A stretch of 64,000 bases of DNA from contig OZ024741.1 in assembly GCA_964016885.1 (NCBI GenBank), forward strand, positions 40,300,001 through 40,364,000, in the 5' to 3' direction. A program made the translations under genes and the position numbers. The notes beneath the pieces were generated by a model. That model was not told the DNA's origin. It made no database searches and saw nothing but the letters and a program-made list of their open reading frames with translations. Below, in pieces: positions 16,470 to 64,000 of this stretch. The DNA comes from Eledone cirrhosa (Eukaryota). Each line of letters starts with the position of its first letter. Within the stretch, counting starts at the first letter, position 1.

Positions 16470-19400
16470 ATAAAATATAAATAAGTCAAATGTTTAAAAT
16501 TTGGCTTCGTTTATTACTGCTATATATATTTCGGTGACAGCCATCTTTGGCTGTGACCTCTTCAGGCAGTCCGAATTAGTGTGGTAGAGACGAGTATACA
16601 TGTTGTTGAGGTGTATAACTTTGTCAATACTCTGATATGCCAAGTTCCTGGTTGGGTTGTTATTTCACTGAGGAACTGGAATCATATGAATTCAAACAAA
16701 CGAATTTCAGTGTCAAAGGGCCTCTTCTCCTCTCATTGGTCAGTTGTTAGAACATTCCTCAGTCAAAAGTCTATAGAAATTCGTTCTGAGGCAAGCCAAT
16801 CTGTAGTTGTTGTTCTTGTTATTGTTAGGTACATCTGACCTCTATTCTTGTGTTGGTAGTGGTGTTATTGTTGGAGTCAGCTAAAAACAAATGTGGTAAA
16901 GTGGTAGAAGGAATAAAATGGTAAATAAACAAAATAAAATAAAATAATCGAATAAAATATACCCATCTCAACGTTATAAAGATTTGTAAGGTCAAACTTC
17001 CCATTGGTCAGTTTTGAGAGCATTCCTCAGTCCAAAGCCTATAGAAATTCTTTCTGCCATGTATATGAAGAAATAGAAGGCAATAAAATGAAGTAAACGG
17101 AAAATAAATAATAGATAGAGAATAAATGAAAAATTAATGAAAAGGTAATGAAAAAGTAATGAAAAGTGAATATGGAAAATGAAAAATGAAAATGAAAAGT
17201 GAAAAATAAAATGAAGATTCGAATAAAATAAGATAAAATGTGTGTGTGCTATAACCAATCTCAAGGTCAGAAATATGTTGGATAGATTGGTAGGAGGAAC
17301 AAGATGGTAAAAGAATAAGACGAAATAGGATATTCAAATAAAATGTCTGTGTGTTATAACAAATCTCAACTTAAATATAAAGTGATAAAGTGAAGAAAAC
17401 AGAAAACAAATAACAAATGAATAATGAGAAATCAAAAGTGAAAAATCAAAAATCAGGTAAATTAAAATGTGTGTGTGTTATAAAGATGTTGGTCAAATTA
17501 TAAAGGCTGTGTCAGAATCAATCTCTAGGCTATCATGGTGTCGGCTCAGCCTGGCTTGAGGGGAGTTCCCAACCTATGGTGTTGTTACTGCCCATATAGC
17601 TTGAGGGAGGTTTGGCCGGGAGGTGTCTACATGTTCTGGAGAAGTCCCTATAGCTTGAGGGGAGTTCACATCTTATTGTGTTGCTACTGTCCATATATCT
17701 TGAGGAAGGTCCCGGCCCTGAGGTGTCTGCATGTCCCGAAGAAGTCGGTTCTGAGGTTTATCAGGCCGCTTCCACCTTCTTATTATCTCAAGGGTCTCGT
17801 TCAGACATAGTTTGCATATGCAAGATCCCCCTTTATCGGGTGGTACTTTCCTGATTATGGACCAGGCCAGAGAGTACGGGGTCCTGTCCAGCTTAAGCTT
17901 CCAGATCAGGTCGGAGAGAGCCGTACTTTTCCTTTTGGCCTCCTTATTGAAGGAATCGCGATGGTTATACCAGCGGTCTTTAAAGTTCGTTGGTGTGGCT
18001 CCTATGTAGAGGTGTTCGGAGTTGGGGGTTTTAACCCTACAACCGTATACTATGTTCTTCTTAAGGCATTCATTACCAAGGGAGCATGATTCGAGGTTTC
18101 TGCAGTTGCAGAGGGTGGTCGACCACTGCGTGCCTAGATTTGGGTTCCCGTTAAGTGTTATATGGTGGTCTTCCCCCAGGCGCGGTGGGGGGGGGGTCCC
18201 AGGGTCTGTTTGGGTTTCTTGGGTGGGTACTGGGTCCCCCCTTCCCTCCTTTCACATGGTTCTGCTGAGTGCTTGTATTGCCATCTTCTGGTTGTGTGTG
18301 GTTTTTAAGCCTACTCCTGTTGATGCTAGCTATGTGTTGGGCCAGATTTCTCGTGGTGGAATACGAGAGCTTCACAGTGTGTCTGTTGAAGATCGTGTGG
18401 TATCTATGGTCCCTCGGGAAGCATTTATCAAGTACTCCAAAGAATGATCGGGCCAAGCTGTTCTTTAGGGCCGCTGAGTAGGGTGGGTTGTACCACGTGA
18501 TTTTTCTGTGTCTCCTCCTATATGTGTGGGTCGGGGGCGTCGTGTGTTGTTGGAGATTTGCTGGGTTGGTGGTGGTTCCCGCATTGTTGCTTCCCCTTTG
18601 GGCGCTATGCGTTTTGCTATCTTCACGGCCCGAATCTGTGGGGTGGTCGTTGCCCGAGCTGGGAGATCTAACATGGGGTGCCCCCCCCCCCCCACGTGTC
18701 CTGCAGTTGTGGTCGTCGGGCCGGGGTGGTTAGCATCACCCCTGAAACTGCTACTCATATTGGGTTTCACCCCATGGTTAAGCGTACTCGTCACCAACGC
18801 CCGTGTGGTGGTGTCGGGATCATGGTGCCTATTTGTTTTTGTACTGCCTGGATTGTTAGGGTTCCCCCCTCCCCGGGCAACGCTGGTGTGGGTGTCTGTT
18901 GGGCCAGCCCCATCCCGGCGTTTCGGACTGTATGTTATATTTTGTCCATGTGCCGCCTTATTTAGAGCTGCGTTGTAATATTCCGCGTTGTTATCGAATA
19001 TTTCCTTACTTGCGGATGGGCTGGAGATGCTGTCCGAGACACTCTTCACCACGGCCTTGGTTATGGATCTAGGGTGGCGTTAACATACACGAGTTTCTCG
19101 TTGGGCTTGTGGTAGGTGTAGTATTGTTCGGTGTTCAGGTTTAGGGTGGTGTCTAGGAAGTTAACTACCTTTCTATTTGGGTCTAGTTCTATACTGAGCC
19201 CCTGGTTCTTAAAGAAATGGCGAATACGCCTTCTCATTCCCTCCAACATATTGGTGCTGAGGTCATATACTGTGAAGAGAGCATCGTGACGATATAATCC
19301 GCCGCCCAGGCAGGGGATTTCATCTTTTATCTGCTTCAGCAGGAAGAGCCCAACCAGGTCCGTTACCTGTGCTGAGTCGCTGGAGCCCATCGTGATGTCA

Positions 19401-20545: not shown

Positions 20546-20569
20546 TACATATATACATATATATATACG

Positions 20570-20766
20570 AAAATGTTCAAGACCCCAACGGCAGAGCTCG
20601 AGCCGTTTCGACGGCTATTTCTGTACCTTGGTCTCTGTGTGTGTATATATGTATATATATAGACGTCGGGGTCTTGAACATTTTCCTATTACCCACACTA
20701 CTACCCAAATTATTGAGTACTCTGGTGCGTTATGGTCCACCTGGTTCCTTACCACACTTCCTTCGT

Positions 20767-20768
<2 letters not shown>
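20570..20768. repeat. Hairpin-bearing interspersed repeat family H
   Basis: Shared GACCCCGACGGCAGAGCT..AGCCGTTTCGACGGCT and TGGTGCGTTATGGTCC..CTTACCACA..CCTTCGTT modules; also at 33640-33761, 35325-35412, 44457-44505, 48668-48725 and 60409-60547. Confidence 0.85.
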
Positions 20769-20824
<56 letters not shown>

Positions 20825-29960: not shown

Positions 29961-31310
29961 TTAATTGTAAGTTGTGATGTTGCTGTTCCACTCATATTTT
30001 CTATTTAATTTTTGTTGTAATTCTTTTATGTTTACTGCCTCTGTAATTTGTCTAAACATTGCGTCTTTTCTGTCTGTAGATTCTATTTTTATTTCTATGT
30101 TCTCTAATTTACCCTTGTGTTCTATTTTAGCATGTTGGTAGAGTACAGATGATTCTTTACTATCTTGAAGGTCTCGCCAGTGTTCATTTATCCGTTCTCC
30201 TACACTACGAGCTGTCTCACCTATGTACACTATATTTTTGTCTCTACATTGTCCTTCAGTACATCTTATGCTATACACTACATTTCTAGTTTTGCAGTTA
30301 ATATGGGGGCTTATTTTACAGGTTATACATTTCTTATCTATACATGAGGGTCTTTGAAAAGGGTATGTCTTGCTAATAAGTGTTTTTACGGAGGTACCTG
30401 GTCTTTCTACTATCTTAATATTGAGTTTATGTTTGTTTAGGGCCCTTCTAAATTTGTAAGCTAATTCCCCTCTAGGGATTGTATCGATGAACATTACACT
30501 CTGGTATTTATTGCTATCATACCATGAGTTTATTCTATTAGCCTTGTTCCTAGTTCTTTCTATTCTATTCCAAAATGTGCTCCTATACAAGGGGCAGGTC
30601 CCATTTATGTCATTATTTACCATTTTTTCCCATTTGGTTCTGGCTCCTCTATACACTCTGATTCTATCTCTCTGATTGTAACCAGAGAACTGCATACGGT
30701 GGATGAAGTGTTGTATGTGTCTCTCTAGTTCTTCGAGGTTGCACATGCGGGACACGTTTCTCATCACCCGTACCAAATCCGCAATCAGTATGTTGATTTT
30801 GGTATGGTCCGAAACGGCCGAGTTTCGGTGGATCAGATGTTTGGAAGTCATGGGTTTGGCATAATGGGAATGGAGGATTTGTTTTTTGTTGTTAATGGTA
30901 TCTAACCAGAGCTCTGTATCTAGTACAGGTAATCGATGGTTGGGGTGTTTACTTGGGTAGTCTATAGTAACTCTAATGCTCTGGTGGATGGAGTTTGCTA
31001 TTTGCTGGATGCTTTCCATTGTGTTTTTCTCTAGTTCCTGACTGTTCTCTAGAGGGGGTGTCTTAACTACGATGTTTATATCATCAACGTAGCGGGAGTA
31101 CATTATCAGGGTTAAGGGGGCTTCTAATTGTTCTTTAAGTTTAAGTTTAAGTCTACTGTCCCACCATACCATGAATAAGTTAGCTATGTCGCCTGCAATG
31201 CTAACACCAATGGCTGCTCCTTCCTCTTGGGCATATGTTTTTCCATTAAATTTGAACATATGTTCCTTAAGGGTTAGTTTTATGCTGGCCCCTACCGCAT
31301 GTGCAATCAT
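29961..31310 (-). pseudogene. Largest intact segment of the PLE polyprotein (RT palm/thumb plus GIY-YIG)
   Basis: 449-aa ORF with YVDD and VVY..YIGET motifs; continues upstream in frame past one TAG. Confidence 0.9.
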
Positions 31311-33049
31311 TTTCTTCAGTTCATCGTGGTTTTCGGGTGTCCGTATGGCTCTGGTCCACCCGTACTATCTATCTGTGTGGGTTTTCTTGGCCATTGAGGT
31401 AATGGTAGGTGGTCTGCCTCTTGCTGGTCTTGTAGGGCACAGGTTGCTAAGGTCATATGTGTCTAGGTAATTATTACTATAGGTAAGTTTAAGTAGGAGT
31501 CCCAGCTCACTGGTATCAATCCCACGGAACTCAACATTGCTCTCACTGATCATTTCTACGCATTTCTCCACAGCAAAATCCACGTCAATAGATGGATACA
31601 GGGACACAACATCCATACTACCTATTATGCAGTTTGTTAGGTCCCTAGATCGGTTACTCACGCCAATTCTGCTGAGGAGGTCCTCCGTGCTGTCACATAC
31701 ATCTGGGGACATTTCAATGATGGGGCGTATGATCAGGAGAGGAAGTAGGACAGTCTGTAGTTACTAGCAATGTTAGCTCCACAGACTGGCCGTGTTGGTG
31801 GTCCCGTGACAAGTTCACTGCCCGTTTTATGGTCTTTTCGAAGCCCATACAACGCCGGCACGTCATTGTTCCAGGCCTGGAAGTTGTTGGCAGTCCTTTT
31901 GTTGGGCTGCATTATATTCGTCCACATCACCATATGGGCATTGAGGGCTTTTTCTCTATCCTCATGCTCCTGTGGTGTTACCTCTCTTGTGTTAGTGATG
32001 TGGGGTTGCATTGCCTGGATGTAGTTTGGCAGGCTGTCAACCGACATTCTGCCAGACTTGTCTGTTGGAAAGCATGCTATCTCTCCATTACGTGATCGCT
32101 GCATGAGCTTACGCAAGCCATTTGCAGATTTTTCTCCCAGTTGCTGGGCCTCCATTCTATTATGCTTCTTGCTATACTGTTCTATAATATTTCTAAGTTC
32201 GGATCTAGCTATACTAAATTGTGCTTCTGTTTGTTCATCGACCTGTGACGGCAATTGCGTGCGTTTGTTAAATGGTAAAGTCGTGGCGTGGACTCGTCGC
32301 AGGTCGAACGATTTATCCGAGGGATTATAGAAAGTAGAGTTCCAGGCTGCTGCTTTATGTGTACTAGTGCTATTGTTATTGTTAGTTGTGTTGTTTCTAT
32401 TTCTATTTCCACCAACAGCCTCATGGTTGTTTCTATGTCTCTCATAATTACTCCTGTCTCTTTCCACTGGCTCATTGTTGTTATCTATCCTATTTTGTGT
32501 ATCTGTGTGTTCGTCTTGGTTATTTTCTTTGTCCTTAGTCTCCCTTCTCCTTTTAATCCTATTACTTTCCCTTATTTCTGTGATTTCTGTGCTACTGTCA
32601 TTACTTGTTTTCTGTGTCTGTGTGTTTGTTAAGATTGTGGTGGTGGTGAGAGGCATTGAATGCGTGTGTGTTGTTGTTGTTGATGTGTGCTGTTGTTGAT
32701 GTGTGCTGTTGTTGATGTGTGCTGTTGTTGATGTGTGTTGTTGTTGTCTCCGTGTGTGTTATTATTGTTGTGTGTGTTGTTATTGTTGTTTGTGTCTGCG
32801 TGTCTGTTGTTGTTGTTTCTGGGTATATTGTTATTGTTGTTGTTGTTGGTGTGTGTGTTGTTGTTATTGTTGTTGGGATGTGTGTTGTATATGTGTGTGC
32901 GTATATTGTTGCTTTTGTTTTTGTTTTTGTTTTTGAGGCTCCAGCGTAGTTTTGTAAATGATTTTTCTATTTCTGACAGACAACTAATCATATTTACCTT
33001 CTTGAATGTCGCAAATTTCGGGGGTAAACACAACACAGATAACTCATCG

Positions 33050-33624: not shown

Positions 33625-33776
33625 CATATATATATATATAGGAAAATGTATGACCCCGACGGCAGAGCTGAAGCCGTTTCGACGGCTATTTCTAGAACTC
33701 AAAGTATTGCGTACACTGGTGCGTTATGGTCCATCTGGTCCCTTACCACAACTCCTTCGTTATATATATATATATA

Positions 33777-34797
33777 TAATTGGTTACTTAGTAAAATCGA
33801 ATCTCTGGCGGTGTGCAAACAAATTCGGCCTACTATATGAATGAGTTACCAAAGCAGGTAAGGTAAGGTAGGTCCTTAGAGTAATAACATACGTTTAAAT
33901 AGCTTGACAAATTGAATATTGTGGTAGGCAAAATCTAACACACGATATACCAAAGTAACGAAAGAACTAACAGGTTGAGAAAAATACACCTGGACAAATC
34001 TAACGTTATACGTTAAAAGTGTTTCTATGAACCGAAATCAAATATCAGACTTACGTAACTGGCAAGCTCGTGGTATTCATGATCGAACGGAGGATTTAGT
34101 TCATCAACAGCTTTTCGTTCTACCAAAGAACGGGGCGAGAAGCTAAATGTTGCCGCTACATGCAGCGTATCGTATATTTAGATGTCACTTGTTATTTCCA
34201 GCAAGGGAAATAACCCCCGGTTTTTGGCGGGTCATTCAAAATGTTAGACAAAGGAAATATTATAATTTCCGTTAACCATCAGAATAAGCTCTCGACCAGA
34301 TGTTATTAAACAAACGCAAACAATTAACCAATCAACAGAATTGTCTAATTAAATTAATTAGTTAATTATTAAATCTAGGAGAGAATAATATAATTGGATA
34401 CTTAGTAAAATCGAATCTCTGGCGGTGTGCAAGCAAATTCGGCCTACTATATGAACCGCCAATAACCGGGGGTTATTTCCCTTGCTGGAAATAACACGTG
34501 ACATCTAAATATACGATACGCTGCAGCTAGCGGCAACATTTAGCTACTCCCCCGTTCTTTGGTAGAACGAAAACCTGTTAATGAACTGAATCCTCCGTTC
34601 GATCATGAATACCACGAGCTTGCCAGTTACGTAAGTCTGATATTTGATTTCGGATTCATAGAAACACTTTAAACGTATAACGTTTGATTTGTCCAGGTGT
34701 ATTTTTCTCAACCTGTTAGTTCTTTCGTTACTTTGGTATATTGTGTGTTAGATTTTGCCTACCACAATATTCAATTTGTCAAGCTATTTAAACGTAT
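33777..34797. repeat. Composite repeat: about 65-bp direct repeat plus about 340-bp inverted repeat
   Basis: 33777-33841 matches 34390-34454 directly; 33889-34233 is the reverse complement of 34453-34796. Confidence 0.92.
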
Positions 34798-35247: not shown

Positions 35248-35326
<79 letters not shown>

Positions 35327-35465
35327 CGAAGGAATTGTGGTAAGGTAGCAGATGGACCATAACGCACGAGAGTACTCAATACTTAGGGTAATAGGGTGGG
35401 TAATAGGAAAAAGCATATAACGATATGTGCTTTTACAATTCTCCAGAGAAGCCGGAAGATGGGTA

Positions 35466-35510
35466 AATATTGCTGATGAGATGTAATAACATCGAAACTA
35501 GTCCAATATT
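35466..35510 (+). ncRNA. Canonical type I minimal hammerhead ribozyme (GUC site)
   Basis: AATATTG-CTGATGA-GATGT aata ACATC-GAAA-CTAG-TC-CAATATT: 7-bp stem I, 5-bp stem II, palindromic ACTAGT stem III; predicted cleavage after C35503. Confidence 0.95.
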
Positions 35511-35934
35511 CCTGTCTGGCCCTCTGGAGAATAGAGGAAATGTGTTTCCTTGAAAACTCGTATGACTCTAAAACCCGGTCCGTCTGTGTGGTTACATACA
35601 GACTAGCTGACACTCACTGTAAAGTGTCTAGTGAAAAACTGAGTACATGTACATATGTATACATGTGTGTATTTATATGCATACTAATACTTCCGTATAC
35701 ATATGTAGATGTACACTTTAACTTAATTGTTTAAGCGTCAGTCATACAAAAGTGAGTTAGAAGCGAAACGAAATTTAATTTCGTTTCGTTATTTGTTTTT
35801 ATCGTTTCCGCTGAACCGGTGCGTACAATGACTCACGTTCTATGCAAATTAGTCTACCCACTACTAATTTTCATAGAAAAAGCATATAACGATATGTGCT
35901 TTTACAATTCTCCAGAGAAGCCGGAAGATGGGTA

Positions 35935-35979
35935 AATATTTCTGATGAGATGTAATAACATCGAAACTAGTCCAATATT
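35935..35979 (+). ncRNA. Second hammerhead copy
   Basis: Identical to 35466-35510 except G>T at 35941, the stem I pair next to the core; predicted cleavage after C35972. Confidence 0.9.
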
Positions 35980-36191
35980 CCTGTCTGGCCCTCTGGAGAA
36001 TAGAGGAAATGTGTTTCCTTGAAAACTCGTATGACTCTAAAACCCGGTCCGTCTGTGTGGTTACATACAGACTAGCTGACACTCACTGTAAAGTGTCTAG
36101 TGAAAAACTGAGTACATGTACATATGTATACATGTGTGTATTTATATGCATACTAATACTTCCGTATACATATGTAGATGTACACTTTAAC

Positions 36192-36261
<70 letters not shown>

Positions 36262-36583
36262 ATATGTATACATATCTATGTGTAGATGTAGGTGTGTGTG
36301 TGTTGGCATATGTGTGCAGGTATGTGTGTGCGTGTGTGTGTGTGTGTAGGGATATATGTGCATGTATGTGTGTGCGGGTGTGTGTGTGTGTATGTGTGAG
36401 TGTGTGTGTGGGGGGGACACATGTGTGCATGTATGTGTGTGCGTGTGCGTGAGTGTGTGTGTGTGCATGGGCATATGTGTGCATGTATGTGTGTGTGTGT
36501 GAGTGTGTGTGCGTGTGTGTGTCTATGTGTGTGTGTGTCTATGTGTGTGTGTGTATGAGTATGTGTATGTGTATATATGTGTA

Positions 36584-42598: not shown

Positions 42599-42840
42599 AG
42601 AATAGCTTTCACCGTATTTTTTTGACTAAAGAAATTTTAGTCTGATAATGGGGTTTAGAACCCTCAGATAAATGGGTGATGTGTTGGTGTAATGGTAGCA
42701 CAGTGGTCTGGATAACCAAAGATGTGGGTTCGACTCCCATGTACATCAATACTCATCTTTTTCCATTTATCTGAGGGTTCTAAACCCCATTATCAGACTA
42801 AAATTTCTTTAGTTAAAAAATACGGTGAAAGCTATCCTAT
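42597..42840. repeat. About 78-bp inverted repeat enclosing a tRNA-like sequence
   Basis: 42597-42675 is the reverse complement of 42763-42840 with few mismatches. Confidence 0.92.
42678..42748 (+). tRNA. tRNA-like gene or pseudogene, 71 nt, apparent anticodon GGA, identity uncertain
   Basis: Acceptor GATGTGT/GTACATC+A, D arm GTGT-AATGGTA-GCAC, anticodon arm gTGGT-CTGGATA-ACCAa, 4-nt variable loop, T arm GTGGG-TTCGACT-CCCAT. A and B boxes intact; T5 at 42758-42762. Confidence 0.6.
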
Positions 42841-48624: not shown

Positions 48625-48670
<46 letters not shown>

Positions 48671-48961
48671 AACGAGTAGGACCCCGACGGCTGAGCTCAA
48701 GCCGTTTCGACGGCTAATTCTGGACTATATATATATATAAAGATAATAAAGTGTTGCAGTTTGCTTGAAGCATGTGGAATAAGAAATACAAATATAACTA
48801 AGAAAGAGGAAGGAAGGAAAAAAATGAAGTTAGAAAGGGAAAGGGAGACAGAAAGAAAGAAACAAACAAGATAGGAATGAAAGAAGTGGAAAAGGAGAGA
48901 AAGAAACATAGAAGAGAAAGGGGAGGGAAAATACATTGAAAAACAATGATAAAATAGATAT

Positions 48962-56887: not shown

Positions 56888-58680
56888 GGCGGTGGATTGG
56901 CAGAATTGGTAAGGGTCTGACGACATGGCGGTGGATTGGCAGAATTGATAAGGGTCTGACGCCTTGGCGGTGGATTGGCAGAATTGGTAAGGGTCTGACG
57001 ACATGGCGGTGGATTGGCAGTATCGGTAAGGGTCTGACGCCATGGCGGTGGATTGGCAGTATTGGTAAGGGTCTGACGACATGGCGGTGGATTGGCAGTA
57101 TCGGTAAGGGTCTGACGCCTTGGCGGTGGATTGGCAGTATTGGTAAGGGTCTGACGCCATGGCGGTGGATTGGCAGTATCGGTAAGGGTCTGACGCCATG
57201 GCGGTGGATTGGCAGAATTGGTAAGGGTCTGACGACATGGCGGTGGATTGGCAGTATCGGTAAGGGTCTGACGCCATGGCGGTGGATTGGCAGTATTGGT
57301 AAGGGTCTGACGCCATGGCGGTGGATTGGCAGTATTGGTAAGGGTCTGACGCCATGGCGGTGGATTGGCAGTATTGGTAAGGGTCTGACGCCTTGGCGGT
57401 GGATTGGCAGTATTGGTAAGGGTCTGACGCCATGGCGGTGGATTGGCAGAATTGGTAAGGGTCTGACGCCATGGCGGTGGATTGGCAGAATTGGTAAGGG
57501 TCTGACGCCATGGCGGTGGATTGGCAGAATTGGTAAGGGTCTGACGCCATGGCGGTGGATTGGCAGTATTGGTAAGGGTCTGACGCCATGGCGGTGGATT
57601 GGCAGAATCGGTAAGGGTCTGACGCCATGGCGGTGGATTGGCAGTATCGGTAAGGGTCTGACGCCTTGGCGGTGGATTGGCAGTATTGGTAAGGGTCTGA
57701 CGCCATGGCGGTGGATTGGCAGAATTGGTAAGGGTCTGACGCCATGGCGGTGGATTGGCAGTATTGGTAAGGGTCTGACGCCATGGCGGTGGATTGGCAG
57801 TATCGGTAAGGGTCTGACGCCATGGCGGTGGATTGGCAGTATTGGTAAGGGTCTGACGCCATGGCGGTGGATTGGCAGTATTGGTAAGGGTCTGACGCCA
57901 TGGCGGTGGATTGGCAGAATTGGTAAGGGTCTGACGCCATGGCGGTGGATTGGCAGTATTGGTAAGGGTCTGACGCCATGGCGGTGGATTGGCAGTATCG
58001 GTAAGGGTCTGACGCCATGGCGGTGGATTGGCAGTATTGGTAAGGGTCTGACGCCATGGCGGTGGATTGGCAGTATTGGTAAGGGTCTGACGCCATGGCG
58101 GTGGATTGGTAGTATTGGTAAGGGTCTGACGCCATGGCGGTGGATTGGCAGTATTGGTAAGGGTCTGACGCCATGGCGGTGGATTGGCAGTATTGGTAAG
58201 GGTCTGACGCCATGGCGGTGGATTGGCAGTATCGTAAGGGTCTGACGCCATGGCAGTGGATTGGCAGTATTGGTAAGGGTCTGACGCCATGGCGGTGGAT
58301 TGGCAGTATTGGTAAGGGTCTGACGCCTTGGCGGTGGATTGGCAGTATCGGTAAGGGTCTGACGCCATGGCGGTGGATTGGCAGTATTGGTAAGGGTCTG
58401 ACGCCATGGCGGTGGATTGGCAGTATTGGTAAGGGTCTGACGCCATGGCGGTGGATTGGCAGTATTGGTAAGGGTCTGACGCCATGGCGGTGGATTGGCA
58501 GTATCGGTAAGGGTCTGACGCCTTGGCGGTGGATTGGCAGTATTGGTAAGGGTCTGACGCCATGGCGGTGGATTGGCAGAATTGGTAAGGGTCTGACGCC
58601 TTGGCGGTGGATTGGCAGTATTGGTAAGGGTCTGACGCCATGGCGGTGGATTGGCAGTATCGGTAAGGGTCTGACGCCAT
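56888..58680 (+). repeat. 39-bp minisatellite, 46 copies, derived from the SINE family A head
   Basis: Unit GGCGGTGGATTGGCAGTATTGGTAAGGGTCTGACGCCAT; 1793 bp equals 46x39 minus a 1-nt deletion at about 58233. Confidence 0.95.
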
Positions 58681-58832
58681 GCTTTGCAGCAAAGAGTTAC
58701 GGCCTTTTATTGTCTGAGTTCAAATCCCGCCGATGTTAACTTTGCCTTTCATCCTTACGGGGTCGATAAAATAAAGTACCAGTAATACACTGGGATATTT
58801 GCTGGCCTTGTGCCAAAAGTAGAAACAATTAT
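58642..58832 (+). mobile_element. Full SINE family A copy terminating the array
   Basis: Last 39-bp unit runs directly into B box, body and tail; ATTATTGCCTCC at 56870-56881 and 58828-58839. Confidence 0.92.
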
Positions 58833-60334: not shown

Positions 60335-60405
<71 letters not shown>

Positions 60406-60710
60406 TATAACGAAGGAATTGTGGTAAGGAACCAGATGCACCATAACGCACCAGAGTACTCAATACTTAGGGTAGTAGAGTGGGTAATAGGAAAAAGTAT
60501 GACCCCGACGGCAGAGCTCATGCGGTCGAGGTCATACTTTTTCCTATATATGTATATATATATATATCAGAATAGAACCAATTTAAAACTAGTTAGACCA
60601 TTACTCAACAGAGTACTCGATACTTGGAGTAGTAGAGTATGGTTATATTATTAAAAGTTGGAACACAACGGCGGGACTCTCAACTGCCGTGTTCCGACTC
60701 CCTATAATAA

Positions 60711-61493: not shown

Positions 61494-61588
61494 GCAGCAG
61501 CAACAACAACAACAACAACAGCCGTAACCACAGACATATCCACCACAATCAAAGAATTAACCACATCCTTTCGTCCATCCTCATTATC

Positions 61589-64000
61589 ATCAACACCGCA
61601 ACAGCATCACTATCAAGGCCATCAACACCACAACAGCATCACTATCAAGGCCATCAACACCACAACAACATCACTATCAAGGCCATCAACACCACAACAG
61701 CATCACTATCAAGGCCATCAACACCGCAACAGCATCACTATCAAGGCCATCAACACCACAACAGAATCACTATCAAGGCCATCAACACCACAACAACATC
61801 ACTATCAAGGCCATCAACACCACAACAGCATCACTATCAAGGCCATCAACACCACAACAGAATCACTATCAAGGCCATCAACACCATAACAGCATCACTA
61901 TCAAGGCCATCAACACCACAACAACATCACTATCAAGGCCATCAACATCAACAACAGCATCACTATCAAGGCCATCAACATCAACAACAGCATCACTATC
62001 AAGGCCATCAACACCACAACAGCATCACTATCAAGGCCATCAACACCACAACAGAATCACTATCAAGGCCATCAACACCACAACAGCATCACTATCAAGG
62101 CCATCAACACCACAACAAGATCACTATCAAGGCCATCAACACCACAACAGCATCACTATCAAGGCCATCAACACCACAACAAGATCACTATCGAGGCCAT
62201 CAACATCACAACAGCATCACTATCAAGGCCATCAACACCACATCAGCATCACTATCAAGGTCATCAACACCACAACAGCATCACTATCAAGGCCATCAAC
62301 ATCAACATCAGCATCACTATCGAGGCCATCAACACCACAACAGCATCACTATCAAGGCCATCAACACCACAACAGCATCACTATCAGGGCCATCAACATC
62401 AACATCAGCATCACTATCAAGGTCATCAACACCACAACAGCATCACTATCAAGGCCATCAACATCAACATCAGCATCACTATCAAGGTCATCAACACCAC
62501 AACAGCATCACTATCAAGGCCATCAACACCACAACAGCATCACTATCAAGGCCATCAACATCAACAACAGCATCACTATCAAGGTCATCAACACCACAAC
62601 AGCATCACTATCAAGGCCATCAACATCAACATCAGCATCACTATCAAGGTCATCAACACCACAACAGCATCACTATCGAGGCCATCAACACCACAACAGC
62701 ATCACTATCAAGGCCATCAACATCAACATCAGCATCACTATCAAGGTCATCAACACCACAACAGCATCACTATCAAGGCCATCAACACCACAACAGCATC
62801 ACTATCAAGGTCATCAACACCACAACAGCATCACTATCGAGGCCATCAACACCACAACAGCATCACTATCAAGGCCATCAACACCACAACAGCATCACTA
62901 TCAAGGCCATCAACATCAACAACAGCATCACTATCAAGGCCATCAACATCAACATTAGCATCACTATCGAGGCCATCAACACCACAACAGCATCACTATC
63001 AAGGCCATCAACACCACAACAGCATCACTATCAAGGCCATCAACACCACAACAGCATCACTATCAAGCCCGTCAACATCAACAACAGCATCACTATCAAG
63101 GTCATCAACATCAACAACAGCATCACTATCGAGGCCATCGACACCACAACAGCATCACTATCAAGGTCATCAACACCACAACAGCATCACTATCAAGGCC
63201 ATCAACACCACAACAGCATCACTATCAAGGCCATCAACATCAACAACAGCATCACTATCAAGGTCATCAACACCACAACAGCATCATTATCAAGGCCATC
63301 AACACCACAACAGCATCACTATCAAGGCCATCAACACCACAGCGGCATCACTATCAAGGCCATCAACATCAACAACAGCATCACTATCAAGGCCATCAAC
63401 ATCAACATTAGCATCACTATCGAGGCCATCAACACCACAACAGCATCACTATCAAGGCCATCAACATCAGCATCACTATCAAGGTCATCAACACCACAAC
63501 AGCATCACTATCAAGGTCATCAACACCACAACAGCATCACTATCAAGGCCATCAACACCACAACAGCATCACTATCAAGGCCATCAACATCAACAACAGC
63601 ATCACTATCAAGGTCATCAACACCACAACAGCATCACTATCAAGGCCATCAACACCACAACAGCATCACTATCAAGGCCATCAACATCAACAACAGCATC
63701 ACTATCAAGGCCATCAACACCACAACAGCATCACTATCAAGGTCATCAACACCACAACAGCATCACTATCAAGGCCATCAACACCACAACAGCGTCACTA
63801 TCAAGGCCATCAACATCAACAACAGCATCACTATCAAGGTCATCAACACCACAACAGCATCACTATCAAGGCAAATCAACACCACAACAGCATCACTATC
63901 AAGGCCATCAACATCAGCAACAGCATCACTATCAAGGCCATCAACATCAACATTAGCATCACTATCGAGGCCATCAACACCACAACAGCATCACTATCAA
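61589..64000. repeat. 32/33-bp minisatellite, about 75 copies, running off the window end
   Basis: Unit ATCAACACCACAACAGCATCACTATCAAGGCC with 33-bp variant ATCAACATCAACAACAGC... Confidence 0.95.

Follow-up and report, generated by a model that had tools for sequence, protein, structure and literature searches.

A non-coding 469-bp hammerhead retrozyme at TA repeats of Eledone cirrhosa, probably copied by a Penelope-like reverse transcriptase

Mobilisation of animal retrozymes by Penelope-like elements (PLEs) has already been proposed, with shared ribozyme type, co-occurrence and pLTR similarity as the argument (PMC7229834; 10.64898/2026.07.22.740005); by its own text, the second of these studies sampled no mollusc. 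Reported hallmarks of PLEs include an inverted copy alongside and a tail confined to one end (PMC8557442; PMC3846280), and the origin of these inverted and tail structures has been termed undefined (PMC8557442). A purified PLE protein, predicted to be a dimer, is reported to cleave and extend both strands and to initiate at two internal RNA sites that bound the tail (PMC11167929).

We analysed a 64,000-nt stretch of the E. cirrhosa assembly GCA_964016885.1 (contig OZ024741.1, positions 40,300,001 to 40,364,000, forward strand), hereafter the window, numbered from its first letter. In the window lies a non-coding 469-bp retrozyme with hammerhead motifs, a member of a young family, which probably inserted recently and was likely copied in by a PLE. 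By its sequence-level features the repeated unit is a non-LTR retrozyme. Like the non-LTR retrozymes described from coral, mussel and axolotl (PMC7229834), it is short, non-coding and tandem, has a GC content under 50% (36% here) and one type I hammerhead per unit, forms a strongly self-paired predicted circle and lacks LTR features. The parts of the insertion are as follows.

35266..35325, no strand: left (TA)n target tract.
35326..35413, minus strand: left inverted arm, the tail-containing end of a Hydra-type PLE pLTR, with its 3' end joined to (TA)n.
35407..35413: GAAAAAG microhomology common to both arms at their junction, from sequence comparison with copies such as L071.
35407..36197, plus strand: retrozyme arm of 1.69 units; it starts at unit position 373 and finishes at 225, the short 3' end.
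35438..35533, plus strand: long stem with hammerhead 1 as its cap, from the fold and from compensatory changes across subfamilies.
35466..35510, plus strand: hammerhead 1, type I and intact, with palindromic ACUAGU stem III and predicted cleavage after 35503.
35504..35972, plus strand: predicted 469-nt monomer between the cleavage sites, consistent with head-to-tail repeats of the unit genome-wide.
35643..35714, plus strand: long TA-rich hairpin close to the short 3' end, on its upstream side.
35729..35802, plus strand: 74-nt 'tail' between the short (position 225) and the long (position 299) insertion end.
35842..35849, plus strand: ATGCAAAT octamer, kept in the sister family.
35935..35979, plus strand: hammerhead 2, in which a private G-to-T change at 35941 breaks a core-adjacent stem I pair.
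36197..36279, no strand: right (TA)n target tract, to which the short end is joined.

An earlier note on this DNA had described two almost identical 322-bp direct repeats 469 bp apart, and these (35407-35728 and 35876-36197) were found to differ at a single site, 35472 G versus 35941 T. It had also judged the unit to lack a credible ORF and the insertion to be recent. None was found among the stop-to-stop frames of the unit, the longest of which span 59-84 codons, and recent insertion was supported. The bounds given for the insertion, 35407..36197, were too narrow, since 35326-35406, which the note had missed, also belongs to it. The octamer may be an internal promoter element, as in newt satellite 2. 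The TA-rich hairpin has a counterpart in the sister family at 67-74% identity; a microRNA identity was considered for it and rejected, with Rfam scores far below threshold.

Both hammerheads contain CTGATGA (at 35473 and 35942), stem I AATATTG/CAATATT, stem II GATGT/ACATC, GAAA, ACTAGT and GTC, with predicted cleavage after 35503 and 35972. The motifs of a textbook type I hammerhead, claimed for each repeat, are present in both, but copy 2 departs from the textbook form. The T at 35941, private to the window copy, lies at hammerhead position 2.1 and places a U-C mismatch beside the core in copy 2 and in the predicted circle from 35504-35972. Position 2.1 was G in 183 of 183 hammerheads counted at 36 other loci with a search pattern that takes intact cores only, and 163 of the 183 were identical to copy 1. 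Because the change is private and all the others have G, hammerhead 2 is likely impaired and copy 1 is the family norm; the proposed cleavage after 35972 is accordingly weakened for the window copy by this stem I mismatch. The Rfam check that the earlier note had suggested returned no hammerhead at the gathering score, but HH9 aligned below threshold to copy 1 (31.8 bits, E 6.8e-6) and copy 2 (24.0 bits, E 0.0022).

The pairing of 35438-35448 with 35522-35532, the long stem said to be capped by the ribozyme, had a z of -4.7 and was equalled in 0 of 200 shuffles. The hairpins named as a chain over the rest of the unit are likewise present in the predicted circular fold of the 469-nt unit, which reached -156.1 kcal/mol compared to -92.9 +/- 5.2 for 100 shuffles (z -12.1); sense-strand units of the subfamilies gave predicted circles of -144 to -160 kcal/mol. 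Neither the core nor ACTAGT varies among 13 distinct hammerhead regions, and 95.2% of cells pair compared to 35-47% in slid controls. Compensation, with 13 of 35 pairs changing on both sides, was matched in 0 of 500 shuffles, a test made on 13 hand-picked variants whose relatedness inflates it and in which one sister-family row gives much of the signal. Stem III consists of one pair and a palindromic loop (ACTAGT), similar to that of axolotl HHR_Amex1, where one pair carries a palindromic tetraloop and the ribozyme is reported to cleave better as a dimer (PMC7229834). Stem I exchange prevailed in a cofold of the two Eledone hammerheads, which makes the cofold uninformative on the dimer.

In searches of the 3.0-Gb genome, the unit had 647 candidate places, of which 39 were scored and contained 449 matches, and exact junctions with (TA)n numbered 1,835 at the long end and 152 at the short end, compared to 0 for the controls. 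Retrozyme copies lie at well over a thousand TA-repeat sites, with the largest array at 14.7 units, which bears out the description of a non-coding, multi-copy tandem element. Loci were taken from the unit search (36), from the short-end junctions (40 of 152) and from the long-end junctions (20 of 1,835). The long-end set includes a larger subfamily (L168-L186) of ~88% identity with units of 466-470 nt, many with a GTT cleavage triplet. A sister retrozyme family of 67-74% identity was met in flanks (L032:7000-8450, L068:200-1020, L055:8050-9000 and L106); it has a longer unit, the same ACTAGT stem III and a GTA cleavage triplet, and its insertion is two-armed with ends at sites homologous to those of the retrozyme. 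We found no published description of the 469-nt family or of fixed retrozyme ends, and the supplements of PMC7229834 and 10.64898/2026.07.22.740005 may list relatives; the main text of an octopus repeat annotation does not mention ribozymes (PMC13282606).

The stretch 35730-36100 matches contigs of three sequencing runs (three organisms, three studies, run kind unspecified), which speaks for presence alone, and had no match among the contigs of one run guessed to be RNA. In run X2, of unspecified kind, a 499-nt contig of depth 2.4 closes on itself by a 30-nt overlap into an exact 469-nt cycle, as expected equally from a circle or from a perfect tandem array. A-to-I editing of the template was considered and rejected: A>G made up 20 and T>C 11 of 166 events, C>T and G>A were commoner, and no clear signal emerged.

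The earlier note had expected circularly permuted copies. Instead, the 3' ends are fixed at two sites 74 nt apart, at unit positions of about 221-230 (~225, short) or 290-300 (~299, long), followed by (TA)n. Unit ends join (TA)n directly, LTR, PBS and PPT are absent, in keeping with the reported lack of a PBS, and the 5' ends of retrozyme arms are scattered. The usual insertion has two arms placed head to head. Among the 94 of 97 loci with an arm of at least 45 nt, which were scored, every two-armed insertion with both ends standard (61 of 61) paired one long with one short end, and neither short+short nor long+long occurred. The other scored loci had one non-standard end (8), ran off the fetched stretch (4) or had no or a very short partner (21). 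The nearest to an exception is L038, with ends at about 204-210 and 227-230, and by eye eight loci with tiny partners obey the same rule. Of 62 arm junctions, 32 have an overlap of 0-2 nt, subfamily alleles are usually common to both arms, and the median for arms is 1.1 units, a few reaching 9-14. By analogy with the purified PLE protein, we infer that the two arms are two cDNAs primed from both sides of one cut. The two-armed, two-fixed-end footprint is likely that of a Penelope-like RT copying RNA at the two sides of a cut in the DNA, and the 61 of 61 pairings support the PLE mobilisation put forward in the earlier note. The strict one-short, one-long rule offers a testable model for the inverted and tail structures of PLEs.

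The left arm of the window insertion points to a possible helper. On the minus strand, 35326-35413 is 96% identical to short inverted insertions of high copy number, whose two ends lie about 80 nt apart; a first look gave 1,994 candidates, of which 40 were scored. Over 84 nt it is also 88% identical to the tail (~80 nt) of the pLTR in a young, intact Hydra-type family (L203-L217) with frames of ~790 aa, scored copies 94-99% identical and ends that join (TA)n. The translation of one member, L212, contains RWR, DKT and CNCPDRSIC (CxCX5C), and matches the features given for the Hydra clade, namely RWK-like, DKT and CxCX5C motifs, a C-terminal endonuclease and a (TA)n target (PMC8557442, section 11). 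As judged from its sequence, the window insertion is a Hydra-type tail end joined through the 7-nt GAAAAAG to the short end of a retrozyme, so that the one-long, one-short rule is kept across families. The same junction would result if a deletion had later joined two neighbouring insertions within a single TA tract. L033 and L147 also adjoin Hydra-like sequence, in weaker contacts, and L182 adjoins another clade.

Similarity of the unit to the three PLE families examined was limited to TA-rich matches, with no pLTR homology; a provisionally labelled Neptune-like family (777-aa frames, 39-nt tail) and an 887-aa family contain nothing similar to it. Three pattern searches found no hammerhead upstream of the Hydra-type tail variant and met one chimeric junction. 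The case for the Hydra-type PLE as helper is built on one junction and the two weaker contacts, and the unit resembles none of the three PLE families; we therefore treat this PLE as a candidate helper, for which we see an even chance.

Several other features were noted. At L218:1380-1680 a Hydra-type tail arm stands head to head with an arm of a different family. Further short Hydra-type pLTR-end insertions, several of them inverted, lie in the window at 20566-20772, 33638-33766, 48666-48726 and 60404-60526, and the 5' ends of such insertions often stop at AGTCC. At 17676-19079 (minus strand) lie broken pieces of Hydra-like PLEs, with a match to GIY-YIG. Elsewhere in the genome, L109-L126 form a very young PLE family with 777-aa frames at 99% identity, a 39-nt tail and TA ends, inside which no hammerhead pattern was found. 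Other hammerhead-like motifs with palindromic stem III occur in the window at 16565, 40123 and 29755, all on the minus strand, the last lying shortly beyond a Penelope-like frame (29964-31364 and 31736-32758). The window also holds 143-bp inverted arms (33889-34031 and 34655-34797, 98% complementary) inside a larger inverted structure between TA tracts, a tRNA match (Rfam) at 42678-42748, a 39-bp minisatellite of 46 copies at 56888-58681 and a 32/162-bp satellite at 61588-64000.

The arms also carry information on the template. In 95 end-selected arms with a mean length of 709 nt the cleavage site is crossed 168 times, which shows that copying was not a single pass over a cleaved linear monomer. 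Around the ribozyme, the 5' ends of these arms are somewhat more frequent than expected (18 versus 9.0, p 0.005, one of 10 bins); this excess is absent in the whole set, where the bin holds 21 versus 15.4 (p 0.10). A hard stop of 5' ends at the cleavage site was rejected, with 4 versus 2.1 expected within 5 nt in the 95 arms. Long two-armed arrays are uniform for their subfamily alleles. Three alleles absent from the other loci compared run through 15 units over both arms of L180, one allele specific to L181 among the loci compared is found in 8 units on both arms, and L048 has 8 identical units; divergence values of L164, an alignment artefact, were left out. From these sequences a circular template is plausible, at somewhat better than even chances, and the identical units could be an assembly effect. 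Older arrays (L035, L053, L065 and L066) contain variants common to non-adjacent units, L052 has one variant in register across both arms, such in-register cases being few, and L058 and L064 have mixed alleles. For the patterns in L035, L053, L065, L066 and L052, a single circle is a poorer explanation than multimeric templates or an exchange of DNA after insertion.

We consider it probable that the retrozyme was copied into (TA)n by a Penelope-like RT, most likely of the Hydra clade. The unit would be transcribed, self-cleave, probably as a dimer through ACUAGU, and circularise. A dimeric RT-endonuclease would then cut both (TA)n strands, and the RT would prime on one strand at ~225 and on the other at ~299 of the RNA, copying through the ribozyme repeatedly, as processivity allows, on the circle or on an uncleaved multimer. 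The two cDNAs would be joined via short microhomology. In the window event, the retrozyme RNA would have supplied one end, copied from the short site, and a Penelope-like RNA the other, copied from the tail site. Two published observations count against this explanation: 8 of 9 Xenopus retrozyme dimers are reported without cleavage in vitro (10.64898/2026.07.22.740005), and PLE insertion in vitro is reported not to need hammerhead cleavage, with hammerhead mutants having no effect (PMC11167929). The latter result also favours an account in which PLE-type mobilisation starts from uncleaved linear multimers of long source arrays, the hammerhead being slow or incidental and the circle unneeded. 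The minimal stem III, the variants that recur among units, once in register on both arms (L052), and the mild 5'-end excess around the ribozyme are consistent with it. Linear copying would only shorten arrays, yet several subfamilies have long homogeneous two-armed arrays, in some of which locus-specific alleles are present in all units on either arm, and the ribozyme structure is kept by compensatory change; we regard this account as unlikely.

Less likely still is growth of short insertions in the DNA by unequal exchange or gene conversion, in the manner of a minisatellite, a route proposed in 10.64898/2026.07.22.740005. Variants do repeat block-like in L066 and L035, and the few arms of 9-14 units exceed the bulk, but both inverted arms are often long and free or nearly free of mutations (4.7+4.9 units in L048, 10.3+6.2 in L062), and the fixed ends would be unexplained. 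It is very improbable that the unit is merely a detached pLTR of a coding PLE, even though 24 of 57 Xenopus retrozyme families are reported to match known TEs, nearly all PLE termini (10.64898/2026.07.22.740005), and tail-type ends are a pLTR feature. The unit was the regular terminus of an ORF at 0 of the 97 loci examined, so that the fixed terminal repeat of a coding PLE, which the earlier note had named as grounds for refutation, was not what we found; arms run unit into unit, and the unit is unlike the pLTRs of the three PLE families. Returning to copying by a Penelope-like RT, a more specific form of it is possible, though rather doubtful: a dimeric Hydra-clade RT might copy the 469-nt circle by double-ended rolling circle from obligatorily different priming sites, and might pair its own RNA with that of the retrozyme. 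If so, the family would be direct genomic evidence for the integration of animal retrozyme circles and would show the origin of the inverted and tail structures of PLEs. With two mapped start sites on an RNA of 469 nt, (TA)n as the target and a candidate RT that is intact, rolling-circle retrotransposition could readily be put to an in vitro test.

The plant-type LTR retrozyme, with a type III hammerhead in its LTRs, a PBS and a 4-bp TSD, does not describe this element, which has type I topology, tandem units and TA junctions. Among animal retrozymes, the 469-nt unit is longer than the about 170-400 nt of PMC7229834 and falls within the 51-972 bp of 10.64898/2026.07.22.740005. Expression and cleavage were shown for the retrozymes in PMC7229834, whereas the Eledone unit is described here by its sequence; its fixed 3' ends, inverted arms and TA targeting are undescribed in the parts of that paper drawn on here. 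The insertions share with PLEs (PMC8557442; PMC3846280; PMC11167929) partial tandems, 5' truncation, an adjacent inverted copy, a tail at one end, AT-rich or (TA)n targets and two internal start sites. Unlike PLEs, the retrozyme has no ORF, its tail is 74 nt compared to 30-40 nt and is simply the next part of the repeating unit, and its arrays reach 14 units. The Hydra-clade family has (TA)n ends, a tail of about 80 nt, short inverted insertions and tandem units in common with the retrozyme, and differs from it in sequence; the three pattern searches found no hammerhead upstream of its tail variant. The earlier arguments for PLE mobilisation of retrozymes were of the kinds named at the outset; here the insertions themselves, from a young family of over a thousand copies, show the footprint of PLEs to the nucleotide.
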